A stretch of DNA of 10,248 nucleotides, from contig CAWHAE010000006.1 in the NCBI GenBank assembly GCA_963827235.1, positions 1-10,248 on the forward strand, read 5' to 3'. The notes beneath the pieces are model-generated. The model was not told where the DNA came from. It did no database searches and worked only from the letters and a program-made list of their open reading frames with translations. Of the stretch, positions 5,425 through 10,242 are shown in pieces. Every line of letters begins with the position of its first letter. Position 1 is the first letter of the stretch. A program made the position numbers and the translations under genes. This stretch comes from an uncultured bacterium (GTDB lineage Bacteria; Chloroflexota; UBA5177; JANWHV01).

Positions 5425-5670
5425 TCACTCGGATCGCAGCGGATTGATGCCTTCGCCTGGAATAGGCGTCGGCTCACCTCGCTCGATCGTCTTCTTGACT
5501 CGCTTCTCGAGCACTCGCCGCTCGATCATCACGTGGCGGTCGCACGTCGTGCAGCGAATGCCGATGTCGGCTCCCAGGCGGTAGACACGCCACTCCATGC
5601 CGCCGCATGGGTGCGGCTTGCGCAACCGGAGCAGATCGCCGATACGAAACTCAACCGGCGGCTGGGACAT
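5425..5670 (-). CDS. DUF951 family small protein (putative metal-binding)
   Basis: 81 aa; GDLLRLRKPHPCGGMEWRVYRLGADIGIRCTTCDRHVMIERRVLEKRVK matches the DUF951 pattern (KPHPCG..W...R.GAD....C..C); overlaps the pyrF 3' end by 20 bp. Confidence 0.9.
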   Translation of the reverse strand: MSQPPVEFRIGDLLRLRKPHPCGGMEWRVYRLGADIGIRCTTCDRHVMIERRVLEKRVKKTIERGEPTPIPGEGINPLRSE

Positions 5671-6508
5671 CGCCGTGTACCGCTCCCGAGCTCAAGGCGG
5701 AGCGCAGCGCCGCGTTGAGCTCCTGAGCCCTGCTCCGAGCCGCCTCGGCAAAATCGTCGCCCTTAGACGCATGAATGATTGCCCGGCTGACGCTCACTAC
5801 TACGCGACCGCGCTGAGCGACGGCAAGCGACCGCCCAAGCTCCTCGGCAGTGCCACCCTGAGCGCCGATGCCGGGCACGAGTATTGCGGCGCCGGGAACC
5901 AGCCGAGCCGCCCAGGCGAACGCCGCCTGCTCCCGCGCACCGATCACCAGCCCGGCACGCCCTGCCTCGATGGCGGACTGGAAAAGCCTGATCACGCGTG
6001 CGTAGAGAGGCTCTCCCTCCAGCATGGCATCCTGCAGCGTGGCAGCACCCGGATTGGAGGTCCGGCAGAGAACAAATGCGAAGCCCGCTTCATGCTCTAG
6101 CAGCGGTGCCACGGCGTCCAGGCCCAGGTAAGGACTGACCGTGCAGGCCGTGGCGCCCAGGTGCCCGAACAGCGCATCGGCATAGGCTTGGCTGGTGTTG
6201 CCTATGTCGCCGCGCTTGGCGTCGACGATCACTGGTATGTGCGAAGGCACGGCCGCGACAACCTCCTCCAGCGCAGCCCAACCGGCCGCGCCGAACCGCT
6301 CGAAGAAGGCCGCGTTCGGCTTGAAGGCGCACGCGACGTCTGCCGTTGCCTCGATGATCTGGCGGCAGAAGCCGGCCAGGCCGCGCGCACCGTCGAAGCA
6401 CGGCGGCAGGCGGCCCGGCTCGGGGTCGAGGCCGATGCAGAGACAGCCGCCGGAGGCGGCCCTGGCCACGCTCAGCCGCTGGAGAAAGCCGGAGGCTGCG
6501 GCGCTCAC
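5651..6508 (-). CDS. pyrF: Orotidine-5'-phosphate decarboxylase (subfamily 2 type)
   Basis: LCIGLDP, FKPNAAFFE, DAKRGDIGNT (catalytic DxKxxDIxxT), CRTSNP, PGIGAQGG, SRAI. Start moved from the ORF-track 6679 to GTG at 6508, which overlaps the PHP stop as GTGA; gives 285 aa. Confidence 0.95.
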   Translation of the reverse strand: MSAAASGFLQRLSVARAASGGCLCIGLDPEPGRLPPCFDGARGLAGFCRQIIEATADVACAFKPNAAFFERFGAAGWAALEEVVAAVPSHIPVIVDAKRGDIGNTSQAYADALFGHLGATACTVSPYLGLDAVAPLLEHEAGFAFVLCRTSNPGAATLQDAMLEGEPLYARVIRLFQSAIEAGRAGLVIGAREQAAFAWAARLVPGAAILVPGIGAQGGTAEELGRSLAVAQRGRVVVSVSRAIIHASKGDDFAEAARSRAQELNAALRSALSSGAVHGDVPAAG

Positions 6509-7164
6509 CGTCTCACCCGAGCCAGCAGATACTGCGGGTGCTCGATCAGTACGCTCTGCAAGTATGCTTCGGGCACGCCGGCGCCGAGCGCCACCAGCCT
6601 GGCCTTCTGCTCCGTGAGCAGATCCTCCGGAGAATGCCCGTCGGAATCCACGATCAGGCGCGCGCCCGCGGCGAGACAAACCTGGGCGACACGCCCGTTG
6701 CTCAGCGAGTGCCCGCGGCGCGCCGACAGCTCTACGAAGACGTCTCGCGTGCTGGCAAGCACGGCTTCCTCCTCGCTGAGCAGGCCCGGATGGGCAAGGA
6801 TGTCGACGTCAGGACAGCGCAGCGCGGCGAGATTGGTGCCGGCGGGTACCGGCTCAACCATGGTCTCGCCGTGGACAGCTACGATCTGCGCCCCGGCGGC
6901 TCGGGCGGAGCGGGCCGCCTCGGCAATTGCCTCGGGAGGCAAGTGGGTGATCTCGACGCCGAGCAAGACCTCGATCTGCCAGTACTTTGTGGCAAGCTGA
7001 ATATCCCGGCTCAGCTCCACGAAGCGGCTCTCGAGGAAGCCTATTCCGGCGTGGTCGGTGATTGCCATGGCAGTGTAGCCGTTGACACAGGCTGTACGGA
7101 TCAGCTCGACCGGCGACAGTTCGCCGTCGCTGAGATAGGTGTGGCAGTGAAAATCGTAGAGCAT
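6505..7164 (-). CDS. Stand-alone PHP-domain metal-dependent phosphoesterase (histidinol-phosphate phosphatase-like family)
   Basis: 219 aa; DFHCHTYLSDG, AITDH, GVEITH, VHGE, ILAHPG and DSDGH carry the PHP metal ligands; SD-like GGAAGGA upstream on the minus strand. Confidence 0.9.
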   Translation of the reverse strand: MLYDFHCHTYLSDGELSPVELIRTACVNGYTAMAITDHAGIGFLESRFVELSRDIQLATKYWQIEVLLGVEITHLPPEAIAEAARSARAAGAQIVAVHGETMVEPVPAGTNLAALRCPDVDILAHPGLLSEEEAVLASTRDVFVELSARRGHSLSNGRVAQVCLAAGARLIVDSDGHSPEDLLTEQKARLVALGAGVPEAYLQSVLIEHPQYLLARVRR

Positions 7165-7191
7165 AGCACGTTCCTTCCCAAATCTAAGGCT

Positions 7192-7200
7192 ACGCTAACA
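7192..7200 (-). promoter_or_regulatory. Possible extended -10 for the PHP-pyrF-DUF951 unit
   Basis: Minus strand reads TG-T-TAGCGT about 28 nt upstream of the PHP ATG; motif match only. Confidence 0.3.
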
Positions 7201-7237
7201 GCGGACATGGCAGCAAGGACCTCGGCATGTCGCGGTA

Positions 7238-7246
7238 TGCTATGCT
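7238..7246 (+). promoter_or_regulatory. Extended -10 promoter candidate for the methyltransferase
   Basis: TG-C-TATGCT (TGnTAnnnT) in the divergent intergenic region. Confidence 0.45.
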
Positions 7247-7297
7247 CTGGCGGTTCGGCTGCCGGAACGGCACCTCGATCTGATGGAAGGGCTCAAG

Positions 7298-8083
7298 ATG
7301 GAAAGCGGCGCCCCCGACCTCTATGCCTCGCGTCCCGACCTGTACGATGTGATGCACGCCGACTTCGTGGACGACACGCGCTTCGTGCATGAGCTATGCT
7401 CGTTACTTGACCACGCGCCACGTGTGCTGGAGCTCGGATGCGGCACCGGGCGCCTGCTGCTCCCGCTGCTCGACGCCGGCGCCAGCGTGGTTGGGCTAGA
7501 CCGTGAGCCGGCCATGCTCGCCGTTGCCGCGAGCCGGCTAGAGCTCTACGGTAACCGCATGAGCCTCGTCGAAGGTGACATGCGCCGCTTCGACCTCGCG
7601 CAGAGATTCGATATGGTAGTGATCGGCCTGAACACCTTCATGCATATGCTCAACATCAACGATCAGCTCGCCACACTGACCTGCGCGCACAAGCATCTGC
7701 GTCCGGCGGGCTTGCTGCTGTTGGACCTGGCCAACCCGCATTCGGTGGTGCATGATACGCCGCAGGGCGCCATCCAGCATCGGCTGACGCACGAGCTTCC
7801 CATTGCGCCCGCCACGACCGTGACCCTGTGGTCGGTCACGGAGATTTCACCTTCCGCGCAGCTCACCCACACGATGCTGTTCTTCGACGAGATGCGCGGA
7901 GATAGCGGCACCCTGCAGCGTTCGATTGCCGGCGTCACCCTCAGGCTGATCTACCGCTACGAGCTCGAGCATCTCCTGCACCGGGCGGGATTCAGCGTGA
8001 AAAACCTCTTCGGCGACTACGACTCGAATCCCTACGACGACGACAGCGAGAGACTGATCTGCGTTGCCACCGCACTGGCGTGA
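7298..8083 (+). CDS. Class I SAM-dependent methyltransferase, substrate unknown
   Basis: Motif I VLELGCGTGR, acidic GLDREPAML, GDMRRF and LRPAGLLLLD. Start placed at ATG 7298 because GGAAGG (7285-7290) lies 7 nt upstream; the alternative is ATG 7283. Confidence 0.92.
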   Translation: MESGAPDLYASRPDLYDVMHADFVDDTRFVHELCSLLDHAPRVLELGCGTGRLLLPLLDAGASVVGLDREPAMLAVAASRLELYGNRMSLVEGDMRRFDLAQRFDMVVIGLNTFMHMLNINDQLATLTCAHKHLRPAGLLLLDLANPHSVVHDTPQGAIQHRLTHELPIAPATTVTLWSVTEISPSAQLTHTMLFFDEMRGDSGTLQRSIAGVTLRLIYRYELEHLLHRAGFSVKNLFGDYDSNPYDDDSERLICVATALA

Positions 8084-8099: not shown

Positions 8100-8269
8100 C
8101 CCGTCCGCGGCTCTGATTGGAACGCTGTGTGGCCATTCACCGGTCACTTTCCTTGATGTCCCGCTCGCGCGCCAGCAGGCTGCGCAACGATCGGCAAGCG
8201 CGTCGAGAGCCGGAGGTTGCAGGGCACCGGGCACGCGGGTACCATATCACCAGCGTTCCGCGCGGCGGG
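8100..8269. ncRNA. Candidate rod-shaped structured RNA (6S-like size and shape), unverified
   Basis: About ten short complementary blocks pair around one centre near 8186, including the 9-bp GGAACGCTG (8119-8127) / CAGCGTTCC (8251-8259). Manual pairing only; strand unknown. Confidence 0.3.
8217..8245 (+). promoter_or_regulatory. Sigma70-type promoter candidate for the small membrane protein
   Basis: TTGCAG (8217-8222) - 17 bp - TACCAT (8240-8245). Confidence 0.5.
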
Positions 8270-8339
8270 CTGCAGGTGTCCGTGTTGCCACGAACGTGAC
8301 ATTGAGATCGGGTGTTGGGAGCGCAAGGAGCGCCAGACT

Positions 8340-8636
8340 GTGACCAAGAGATCGGACATGTCGTCCCGGTACGCCGCCGCGCACGCGCGTCGCGAGCAGC
8401 GCCGGCGGGAATCGGGGGGTCGTGAGTACCTTCCCCTGGCGGAGGAAACGGCAGTCAACACGCAGACCACGGGCGGTTTCGCCGGTAGGCTGCGTGGGCA
8501 GTCGGCCGGCAACGCCGTGCTGACTTCTCGCCTGCCGGCCATCGATTACAGCTATCTGAAAGGTGATCTGATCCGCACGGCTGTCCTGACGTCTTCGCTA
8601 TTCGTGATCATGATCGTATTGTCGTTCATCATCTAG
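8340..8636 (+). CDS. Small hypothetical protein with a single C-terminal transmembrane helix (tail-anchored)
   Basis: GTG at 8340 with SD AAGGAG at 8325-8330; 98 aa; Arg-rich, low-complexity N-terminus, then DYSYLKGDLIR and the hydrophobic TAVLTSSLFVIMIVLSFII running to the stop. Confidence 0.8.
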   Translation: MTKRSDMSSRYAAAHARREQRRRESGGREYLPLAEETAVNTQTTGGFAGRLRGQSAGNAVLTSRLPAIDYSYLKGDLIRTAVLTSSLFVIMIVLSFII

Positions 8637-8690: not shown

Positions 8691-10079
8691 CTGGCGGGTG
8701 ATTGGAGACGGACGTTACCGTCGGCCGAGGCGGTTCTGAAAGAGCCGGTGCTGGTAGAGGCCGTCTCCGACTACGGTCAGGGTGCCGTCTCGCGGCTTGT
8801 CCGGGAGCGATTGGACGATCTGCGGCACGGCTCGATGGCCGGGATTGATGTCACGAGCGGCACCATTGCCAAGGCCGTGGCGACCGAAGCGCAGCGGCGG
8901 TTCTCGCTTAGCCCAGGACCGGTCGTCAACGCCACCGGCGTGATCGTGCATCCACATCTGGGCCGCGCCCCTCTGAGCGAAGCCGCGATCGAGGCGATTC
9001 GCGGCGTGGCAGGCGGTTACAGCGCGATCGAATTCGACCTCGATCGCGGCATGCGAAGCTCACGTAATGCTCTCCTGGCACCATTGTTGAGCCAGCTCAC
9101 CGGTGCGGACGACGGGCTGATCGCGAATACCAATGCCGCCGGCCTCATGCTCATGCTCGCCGCCCTGGCTCGCGGGCGCGAGGTGATCGTGGCACATCGA
9201 CAGGCCATGGAAACCAGCGGCAGCTTCCGCGTCTCGACTATACTGGGAACAAGCGGCGCGCGCTTGGTCGAAGTGGGATCGACAAACCGGACCCGCATCA
9301 CCGACTACGCCGAGGCCATTACGCCCAAGACAGCCCTTATCCTCAACATCAACTCCACCGCCGTACGTGACTCAAGCTTCATCGAGACCGTTCCATTGAC
9401 CGACCTGGTTGCGCTTGGGCACCACAATGGCGTTCCCGTGATCGATGACCAGGGCACCGGCTGCATGGTCGACCTGACGAAATACGGTCTGGCGCGAGAG
9501 CCGACGGTGCAGGAGAGTCTGGCCGCCGGTGTGGATGCCGTGTGCTTCTCGGGTGACAAGCTGTTTGGCGGGCCGCAGAGCGGCATCGTGGTAGGTGGCG
9601 CCGACTTCATCGCCCGCGCCCGCCGGCACCCGTTGATGCGTGCGCTCCGGGTAGACAAGACCACCCTTGCCGCGTTGCACGCCACGGTGCTGCAGTACCT
9701 GCGCGGCGAAGCACTCGATGCCATTCCGGTGTGGCGCATGATCGCGGCACCGCGCGGCCAGCTCGAAGCGCGCGCCCTGGCATGGCTGGGTGCCGCGCAC
9801 GGCTTCGCGGGTTGCAAGGCGAGCGTGTTGCCCGGTCTTTCCTCGCTCAACGGCAACACGCTACAGGGCGAGACCATTCCCACCTTCGTGCTCAGTCTCC
9901 GGGCCTCTACCATTGCACGCGGCTGGGCGTCTCACATCATGACCGAGCTGCGGCACGGCGAACAGCCGGTGCTCACTCGCGTCGAAGATGGCGCGGTGCT
10001 GCTGGATCCGCGAACGGTTCTCCCCTGGCAGGATGAGATGGTGCGCCGGGCTCTGGCCACGGTCCTGGAAGCGGGCTGA
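8691..10079 (+). CDS. selA: SelA-family (L-seryl-tRNA(Sec) selenium transferase-like) PLP-dependent enzyme with divergent motifs; start uncertain (CTG 8691 or GTG 8748)
   Basis: PVVNATGVIVHPHLGRAPL, LVEVGSTNRT, FSGDKLFGGPQSG (PLP lysine at 9558-9560), HPLMRALRVDK and LLDPRTV. The N-terminal RTLPSAEAVL at 8709-8738 resembles the SelA 'LPsvd.lL' start and lies upstream of GTG 8748. Confidence 0.85.
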   Translation: MAGDWRRTLPSAEAVLKEPVLVEAVSDYGQGAVSRLVRERLDDLRHGSMAGIDVTSGTIAKAVATEAQRRFSLSPGPVVNATGVIVHPHLGRAPLSEAAIEAIRGVAGGYSAIEFDLDRGMRSSRNALLAPLLSQLTGADDGLIANTNAAGLMLMLAALARGREVIVAHRQAMETSGSFRVSTILGTSGARLVEVGSTNRTRITDYAEAITPKTALILNINSTAVRDSSFIETVPLTDLVALGHHNGVPVIDDQGTGCMVDLTKYGLAREPTVQESLAAGVDAVCFSGDKLFGGPQSGIVVGGADFIARARRHPLMRALRVDKTTLAALHATVLQYLRGEALDAIPVWRMIAAPRGQLEARALAWLGAAHGFAGCKASVLPGLSSLNGNTLQGETIPTFVLSLRASTIARGWASHIMTELRHGEQPVLTRVEDGAVLLDPRTVLPWQDEMVRRALATVLEAG

Positions 10080-10166: not shown

Positions 10167-10242
10167 GGGCCGCTAGCTCAATTGGCAGAGCAATTGACTC
10201 TTAATCAATGGGTTCCGGGTTCGAGTCTCGGGCGGCTCACCA
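10167..10242 (+). tRNA. tRNA-Lys (anticodon CTT), CCA encoded
   Basis: 76-nt cloverleaf: acceptor GGGCCGC/GCGGCTC, D arm GCTC/GAGC, anticodon arm ATTGA-CTCTTAA-TCAAT (CTT at 10200-10202), T arm CCGGG-TTCGAGT-CTCGG, discriminator A, CCA. Confidence 0.98.

Follow-up and report, generated by a model that had tools for sequence, protein, structure and literature searches.

What becomes of a selenocysteine synthase gene in a lineage that no longer makes selenocysteine? The question is raised by a 10,248-base contig (C6) from an uncultured Chloroflexota bacterium, which makes up the whole of the stretch analysed here (the window), and by the SelA-like open reading frame (ORF) near its 3′ end. The source assembly, G000, spans 8.0 Mb in 21 contigs, with 95.9% completeness and 9% contamination. 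A sequence-only reading of the window had described the frame as a full-length SelA homolog with a remodelled active site, perhaps a paralog with an altered substrate, a non-catalytic subunit or a gene in early decay. Our analysis points to a descendant of a canonical selA in a lineage that has lost selenocysteine (Sec) decoding; we consider it likely that the gene was kept and rebuilt there, and that its product now has another job.

Profile comparisons place the window protein within the SelA family. It scores 420.9 bits against TIGR00474, the selA equivalog model (cut-off 267.9), and 350.9 bits against PF03841. With TIGR00474, the nearest canonical relatives reach 518–534 bits and E. coli SelA 632, leaving the window protein ~100 bits below its nearest relatives. 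Among solved structures, the closest in sequence are those of E. coli SelA (8uzw, E 5e-86) and Aquifex SelA (3w1h, E 2e-79). AlphaFold2, given a 50-sequence alignment, yields a model with a mean predicted local distance difference test score (pLDDT) of 90.3, and the top Foldseek match of this model is the Aquifex enzyme (3w1h_A, 462 columns, template modelling (TM) score 0.85–0.87), so the scaffold is retained. All three SelA domains are present in the predicted structure, including the N-terminal domain, which PF12390 detects at residues 6–45 (27 bits, cut-off 22). The lowest model confidence falls in loops 171–180 (pLDDT 66) and 221–230 (pLDDT 59).

Within this scaffold, positions that are otherwise nearly immutable have been replaced. 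Conservation was measured over 119 other homologs from a database search, whose first row is the window's own product, together with E. coli SelA (b3591); 114 of these sequences are canonical in their motifs. Because the homologs are the top of a similarity-ranked list, Chloroflexota predominate among them and the family is not evenly sampled. Among the 114 canonical sequences, 110 columns reach a conservation of at least 95%, and the window protein departs from the consensus at 25 of them. The median for canonical sequences is 0.5, with a maximum of 16 in E. coli, the most distant, and 11 in the next, P0007. The changes are thus concentrated in conserved motifs on an intact scaffold, as the sequence-only reading had claimed. 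Alignments to 8uzw, 3w1h, b3591 and 113 database homologs bear out every motif difference that it listed, at the coordinates that it gave (HPHLGRA at 8949–8969, AHRQAMETSGSFRVS from 9192, NINSTAV at 9345–9365, and FSGDK with its lysine codon at 9558–9560). Some of these differences carry little meaning. The E-to-Q exchange in SRGE/QxVE is normal in Chloroflexota SelA, and the L-to-Q exchange in DLGSG affects a residue that varies in the family; two more, T to S in GTTNRT and S to T in DxGSG, are minor, being limited to three of the five remodelled orthologs. Four further changes had escaped notice: G117S and, in window numbering, L to I at residue 113, L259M and L333V.

The replacements cluster in five loops around the pocket for pyridoxal phosphate (PLP) and the dimer–dimer (A76-pocket) region (Table 1; Aquifex numbering, from a pairwise alignment to 3w1h, is used for substitutions unless stated). 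Loops 82–83, 141, 162–176 and 381–386 carry fixed new residues, and loop 215–223 has been rewritten and varies within the clade. The motif in this last loop overlaps Aquifex 218–224, the dimer–dimer interaction region. Among the dimer–dimer positions, N218, F219 and G223 are changed and clade-variable and T191 is serine in three of five sequences; T192, D199, R174 and F224 are kept, and nothing is deleted.

The PLP-anchoring and phosphate-binding residues are retained. The PLP lysine in FSGDK, the LGRA arginine and the RALR arginines are all in place, as the sequence-only reading had stated. In window numbering, K290, D289, S287, D253, R92, R125, R317 and R320 are invariant over 50 aligned sequences, the remodelled ones included; the same holds for Aquifex E168, R174, T192 and D199, and F173 is nearly invariant (at least 90%). 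The roles of these residues are taken from passages of a study of orphan SelA (PMC4607533) and of an E. coli cryo-electron microscopy (cryo-EM) paper (PMC11047290). In the former, Aquifex K285 binds PLP, the selenophosphate-binding residues are R86, R312 and R315, with R119 and D284 holding the arginines in place, and S282 and S217 are able to hydrogen-bond PLP. Passages of both describe dimer–dimer contacts that build the decamer, through residues 218–224, T191, T192, D199, Y220 and R174, with the catalytic site adjoining the interface.

The substitutions extend beyond the window. They are common to P0002, P0003, P0004, P0005 and the fragment P0025, which are 76–82% identical to the window protein and come from JGI, NCBI and ENA. 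All five full-length remodelled sequences are changed at 20 of the 110 conserved columns. At ten of these columns all five share a single new residue (T82P, N83H, G117S, N141T, A145G, G170S, P176S, H215N, G381N and, in window numbering, L333V); the other ten are clade-variable and include N218, F219 and G223. P0012, at 61% identity, is changed at 26 conserved columns, to related but distinct residues (HDSLGRA, NIQVAAA, IGGWSA), and P0007 at 11. In a maximum-likelihood tree (IQ-TREE quick search, LG+G4) of 64 rows, comprising the window protein, P0002–P0060 without P0025, four congener sequences and an E. coli outgroup, the remodelled sequences form one clade (Shimodaira–Hasegawa-like approximate likelihood ratio test (SH-aLRT) 99). 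P0012 is sister to this clade (99) and P0007 branches next (90), and all of them lie within the canonical SelA of the same genus; P0012 and P0007 may be intermediate or independent stages. Genome-contig scans with the window protein and P0012 returned only loci 37–48% identical and did not find the genomes of P0012 and P0007, and a metagenome scan for the DNA of the metagenomic orthologs returned only loci 44–45% identical.

Gene order identifies the origin of the remodelled gene. The window runs atpH, atpA, atpG, atpD, atpC, a pair of ORFs that match no family, the gene of a class I methyltransferase, an upstream ORF (orf8217), the SelA-like frame and tRNA-Lys(CTT). The order atpHAGDC, ORF, ORF, methyltransferase, orf8217, selA is identical in G000 and its congeners G001, G003 and G004, and G002 agrees as far as its short contig reaches. 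The motifs are remodelled in G000 and G001 and canonical in G002, G003 and G004. Exactly one SelA homolog is present in the 8.0-Mb genome. Because this single SelA stands in the same gene order as the canonical selA of its congeners, it is their positional ortholog, changed in place, and the paralog suggested by the sequence-only reading is ruled out.

The remainder of the Sec machinery was not found in G000 above the cut-off of any model used. The best selD match reaches 39.8 bits (cut-off 125). The best selB matches reach 181.9 and 181.5 bits (cut-off 242) in open frames of 404 and 421 codons, lengths that would fit EF-Tu-like proteins. The best match to tRNA-Sec, the selC product, reaches 43.7 bits (RF01852, cut-off 47). 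A hidden tRNA-Sec among the sub-threshold RF01852 matches was rejected, all eight being tRNA-Cys, Ser, Leu, Trp or Arg, and none of the 51 tRNAs that aragorn reports in G000 is tRNA-Sec. Those 51 include tRNA-Ser(ACT) and tRNA-His(ATG), with unusual A34 anticodons, which may be false calls or derive from the 9% contamination. G001, which belongs to the same genus, is 87% complete and carries its ortholog on a 1.39-Mb contig, likewise has selD, selB and tRNA-Sec all below cut-off. In the congeners G002, G003 and G004, selD matches at 381–386 bits with one in-frame TGA each, indicating that SelD is itself Sec-encoding; selB is above cut-off in G002 and G004, and tRNA-Sec is found in G003 (72.2 bits) and G004 (71.3 bits). 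The gaps in this record for G002–G004 are uninformative because their assemblies are fragmented (420–720 contigs). The sequence-only reading had allowed for the only selA of a Sec-utilising genome: the gene is indeed the only selA, but the genome does not appear to use Sec.

For selD, the absence can be traced to a deletion. Both of its flanking genes in G002 have counterparts in G000, 78% and 69% identical, which lie in the same orientation on a 1.6-Mb contig with 165 bp between them (C12:723369 and 723534). The flanks are contiguous, so selD is deleted there, not merely unassembled. Since G000 and G001 both lack three unlinked genes and share derived substitutions, parsimony places the loss of Sec decoding before their split. 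A wider sample of 41 genomes, whose tallies include the unpublished G018 (which has both selA and selD and supports no other claim made here), contains a full-length SelA match in 32 genomes and selD above cut-off in 29. SelA occurs without selD in four, namely G000, G001, G017 (75% complete) and G033 (66% complete), and the motifs of G017 and G033 are canonical. Among the 32 SelA-bearing relatives, remodelled motifs are confined to G000 and G001, and no others of at least 87% completeness lack selD. Within G002–G037, 28 of the 29 relatives whose selD exceeds the cut-off show a single in-frame TGA in the match, so SelD is a selenoprotein in these 28; the exception, G010, has none.

These results bear on whether the protein could still be a selenocysteine synthase, served by a selC, selB and selD that are unassembled or have diverged past recognition. 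Such an enzyme would be expected to exceed the TIGR00474 equivalog cut-off and to keep its N-terminal domain and selenophosphate-binding arginines, as the window protein does, and both assemblies are incomplete (95.9% and 87%). However, the three unlinked genes are missing from both assemblies, and the same models match congeners clearly (selD at 381–386 bits, tRNA-Sec at 71–72 bits). The G000 selD site is contiguous without the gene, and the remodelled motifs occur in just those two of the 32 SelA-bearing relatives that lack selD at a completeness of at least 87%. A surviving Sec synthase is therefore extremely improbable.

The remodelled gene is nonetheless maintained. We compared G000 with G001 by the Nei–Gojobori method (NG86), which gives 0.147 nonsynonymous (dN) and 1.44 synonymous (dS) substitutions per site for the SelA-like gene and a dN/dS of 0.10; this ratio is approximate because dS is near saturation, and for the same reason the true ratio can only be lower, 0.10 being an over-estimate. 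The neighbouring genes give 0.14 (methyltransferase), 0.085 (orf8217), 0.068 (atpG), 0.03 (atpD) and 0.02 (atpA). By domain, the ratio is 0.078 for residues 1–75, 0.072 for 76–340 and 0.21 for 341–462. Nucleotide differences at codon positions 1, 2 and 3 number 87, 37 and 245. Neither G000 nor G001 (each with a 480-codon open frame) nor any of four further database orthologs contains a stop or frameshift. Purifying selection thus acts on the SelA-like gene, its N-terminal domain included, as strongly as on the housekeeping genes beside it.

The stem of the clade shows a different pattern. When all five members are compared with the nearest canonical majority, 18% of invariant columns (20/110) have changed, against 13% of moderately conserved columns (13/103) and 33% of variable ones (68/207). 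Positions that are normally untouchable were altered on the stem and constraint then returned, which argues for a change of function and not for decay. Shared changes at conserved columns, in orthologs under purifying selection, uphold the earlier view that this is no ordinary selA, and the ratio of ~0.10 disfavours the early decay that had been offered as one option. A slowly decaying relic, whose function vanished with the Sec trait and whose frame has simply not yet been disrupted, would account for the failure to find selD, selB and tRNA-Sec in G000 and G001, for a stem on which invariant columns changed more often than moderately conserved ones, for the missing conventional start codon and for the ~100-bit deficit with TIGR00474. 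It would not account for a dN/dS of ~0.10 at a dS of ~1.4 with differences concentrated at third codon positions, for frames intact in G000, G001 and four further orthologs, or for the fixation of ten of the 20 changed invariant columns to a single new residue. We judge such a relic very unlikely.

A pseudoenzyme would be under selection as well, kept not for PLP chemistry but for a structural or RNA-binding role (for example as a ring scaffold or a tRNA-binding factor). In favour of this reading, constraint on the N-terminal domain matches that on the core (0.078 vs 0.072). The invariant pocket residues H215, N218, R163, N141, T82 and N83 are replaced, and the Ser217 position, a proposed PLP contact, reads T/S/A/S/S across the clade. 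Yet pseudoenzymes usually lose residues of the kind of the Schiff-base lysine, and here every remodelled member has kept this lysine together with Asp284, Ser282, Asp247 and the arginine triad; moreover, it is the core domain that has the lowest dN/dS. The loss of catalysis is accordingly an unlikely explanation, if a somewhat better one than decay.

The explanation that we favour is a gene kept and rebuilt in a lineage without Sec decoding. This Chloroflexota lineage, represented by G000, G001 and a few metagenomic relatives, has lost the trait and retained selA in place. Its stem saw the replacement of roughly one in five family-invariant positions, in loops surrounding the PLP pocket and the dimer–dimer region, and purifying selection has acted on the remodelled gene since. 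The retained residues suggest that the protein is still a PLP-dependent enzyme, one that would no longer make Sec-tRNA. Its new substrate may be another primary amine with a phosphate or a nucleotide/RNA handle. The A76- and decamer-dependent geometry for Ser-tRNA(Sec) would have been given up and the pocket re-tuned, with the phosphate-binding site still in use. The N-terminal domain, retained and constrained, may still bind RNA; alternatively, assembly may be the reason for its retention, since passages of the E. coli cryo-EM paper describe this domain as crucial for oligomerisation (PMC11047290). A specific form of this proposal is a tRNA- or RNA-dependent PLP enzyme that has switched client, acting on an amino acid that is carried by a different tRNA, perhaps one of class II like tRNA-Ser, or by a nucleotide carrier. 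We put this forward only tentatively and think it improbable in so specific a form. If true, it would represent a new tRNA-linked amino-acid conversion outside selenocysteine synthesis, and a counter-example to N-terminal domain loss as the hallmark of a non-Sec SelA.

Several points weigh against a rebuilt enzyme. Its support comes from sequence, genome context and a structural model, and PLP binding and catalysis are deduced from retained residues alone. The invariant His215 and Asn218 and the Ser217 position are replaced or clade-variable, and their loss could weaken the cofactor chemistry. The dN/dS rests on one genome pair, G000/G001, at a dS that makes the ratio approximate. The selD junction seen in G000 is not demonstrable in G001, where no second flank lies close to the first; G003, too, has a different gene order. 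The estimated contamination of G000 is 9%, G001 is 87% complete, and the window stands on a separate 10-kb contig. Finally, the full-length form is without a conventional start codon, which makes its true N-terminus uncertain.

The start of the gene deserves a closer description. The SelA-like frame is free of stops from 8637 up to the TGA at 10077–10079, and no in-frame ATG, GTG or TTG occurs between the orf8217 stop (TAG, 8634–8636) and GTG 8748. Residues encoded 5′ of 8748 (DWRRTLPSAEAVLKEP) match the SelA N-terminus, and the segment HGLAGDWRRTLPS is the same protein sequence in G000 and G001 despite four synonymous changes. CTG 8691 and the DWRRTLPS that follows it are likewise kept in G001, with synonymous changes. 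GTG 8748 is not conserved: G001 has GTA there and a GTG five codons upstream, so the gene-caller GTGs downstream of the CTG differ between the two genomes, and all five database orthologs have been called with shortened N-termini. CTG 8691, which aligns with the GTG start of P0006, is the simplest reading of the start. The first 19 residues of the 462-residue form need this CTG. The intact frame of ~460 codons in the sequence-only reading is therefore open as described, but its length depends on the CTG start, because no ATG, GTG or TTG precedes GTG 8748 in frame. The canonical selA of G003 (L053) has GTA where G004 has GTG at the aligned start; start-codon ambiguity at selA is thus not confined to the remodelled clade.

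In G000 and G001 alike, the orf8217 TAG shares its frame with the SelA-like ORF. Between the TAG and the CTG lies a 54-nt spacer that is 76% identical in these genomes, with no insertions or deletions, and three other spacers compared need 79–135 gap columns. It might encode an N-terminal extension, serve in coupling or regulation, or belong to a read-through fusion.

Elsewhere in the window, the ORFs between atpC and the methyltransferase gene (5597–6097 and 6161–7000 / 6538–7392) have no Pfam match. Their position is conserved across the genus, at 35–64% identity. For the second, tblastn matches come from both overlapping frames, which leaves the true frame ambiguous. Downstream, the neighbouring tRNA is Lys and not Sec, as had been noted. 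On the 3′ side of the selA ortholog in G001 (L052), the copy of tRNA-Lys(CTT), intact in G000, can be followed only as far as the 3′ side of its anticodon stem, beyond which the sequence is unrelated and AT-rich; this suggests an insertion hot spot at this tRNA, possibly for a mobile element. A search of sequencing runs listed no RNA run and two DNA runs with only a small share of the words.

Table 1. Features of the SelA-like gene and its immediate neighbours (positions in the window; window residue numbers unless marked Aquifex).
Feature	Position	Strand	Description
SelA-family ORF	8691..10079	+	462 codons if CTG 8691 is the start; stop TGA 10077-10079
N-terminal domain	8691..8915	+	Residues 1-75; tRNA-Sec-binding in canonical SelA; helical in model
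CTG, likely non-canonical start	8691..8693	+	Aligned with the GTG start of P0006, the nearest canonical homolog
GTG, first conventional start	8748..8750	+	443-aa product, equal to database protein P0001
HPHLGRA (family HTNLGRA)	8949..8969	+	Aquifex T82P, N83H; R92 (Aquifex Arg86) kept
Ser123 (family-invariant Gly, Aquifex G117)	9057..9059	+	Adjoins kept Arg125 (Aquifex R119)
NTNAAG (family NNNAAA)	9126..9143	+	Aquifex N141T, A145G
AHRQAMETSGSFRVS (family SRGQAVEIGGGFRIP)	9192..9236	+	Aquifex S162A, R163H, V167M, I169T, G170S, P176S; E168, F173, R174 kept
NINSTAVRDSSF (family xVHxSNFxxxGF)	9345..9380	+	Aquifex H215N, S217T, N218A, F219V, G223S
DQGTG	9447..9461	+	Invariant Asp (D253; Aquifex D247) kept
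FSGDK	9546..9560	+	Ser287, Asp289 and PLP lysine Lys290 (Aquifex S282, D284, K285) kept
RALR	9639..9650	+	Arg317, Arg320 (Aquifex R312, R315) kept
NGNTLQ (family GGGSLP)	9849..9866	+	Aquifex G381N, G383N, S384T, P386Q
Upstream ORF (orf8217)	8217..8636	+	139 aa; no family match; hydrophobic C-terminus; precedes selA in 5/5 genomes of the genus
tRNA-Lys(CTT)	10167..10242	+	Downstream neighbour of the SelA-like gene; contig ends 6 bases further

The protein has immediate consequences for annotation. Since it passes the NCBI equivalog cut-off, pipelines will label it a selenocysteine synthase, and organisms that have no Sec may be credited with its use. Although SelA-family by profile, it departs from the functional definition in its invariant motifs and in the co-occurrence with selB, selC and selD, and should not be annotated as a selenocysteine synthase. 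Within the genus, moreover, one chromosomal slot is occupied either by canonical SelA, accompanied by the full Sec trait, or by remodelled SelA in its absence. This clean before-and-after pair is useful for asking what an enzyme of the translation machinery becomes once its pathway disappears.

The D-glucosaminate-6-phosphate ammonia-lyase DgaE, MJ0158 and Cap15 are examples of the SelA scaffold put to other chemistry, with amino substrates that are phosphorylated or linked to a nucleoside. DgaE (7lc0), the MJ0158 family and Cap15 (8t7j) sit in the same branch within the fold-type-I PLP superfamily and have no N-terminal domain. They are distant from the window protein, which scores 73 bits against TIGR01437 (cut-off 385) and matches them in Foldseek at a TM score of 0.57–0.60. 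Convergence toward DgaE/MJ0158 was rejected, since remodelled and canonical sequences alike score 70–84 bits against TIGR01437. The closer comparison is with canonical SelA itself (E. coli b3591/8uzw; Aquifex 3w1h/3w1k). The window protein has the same family profile, the same three-domain fold (as predicted), the chromosomal position of the congener genes, and the PLP lysine, Asp284, Ser282, Arg86, Arg119, Arg312 and Arg315. Unlike canonical SelA, it has 25 of 110 conserved columns replaced, in HTNLGRA, NNNAAA, SRGxxVEIGGxFRIP, VHxSNF..GF and GGGSLP, and resides in a genome in which our searches found no selD, selB or tRNA-Sec.

SelA homologs in organisms without the Sec trait have been noted before, in passages of Zhang et al. 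2006 (PMC1794560). A literature search over open-access papers, without their supplementary files, found no description of a remodelled Chloroflexota SelA. The nearest precedent comes from passages of Cravedi et al. 2015 (PMC4607533) on an orphan SelA, that of Helicobacter pylori (HP1513) and H. acinonychis, where the trait was lost recently and the dN/dS is 0.33. The H. pylori protein has lost its N-terminal domain and most of 218–224, has proline at S217 and keeps the catalytic residues (PMC4607533). In the same passages, the authors propose N-terminal domain loss as the hallmark of non-Sec SelA, naming also Frankia and the subfamily without this domain (DgaE, MJ0158). By its description there, the truncated SelA of some Frankia species is likewise a main-lineage SelA without other Sel components, but it is defined by an N-terminal domain loss that is not seen in the window protein. 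As far as those passages describe it, the H. pylori case shares with ours a main-lineage SelA that outlived the other Sel components under purifying selection (0.33 there, ~0.10 here), with the PLP lysine, Arg86/312/315, Arg119 and Asp284 kept and Ser217 and 218–224 altered. Here, by contrast, the N-terminal domain is present (dN/dS 0.078), nothing is deleted, invariant pocket residues are substituted, and the phylum is another. Because the N-terminal domain, tRNA-binding in canonical SelA, survives while the pocket changes, N-terminal domain loss is not a general hallmark of non-Sec SelA, and an RNA-linked substrate is possible. The remodelled gene is the same kind of event as the H. pylori orphan in another phylum and with the opposite anatomy: the domain has been kept and the pocket rewritten.

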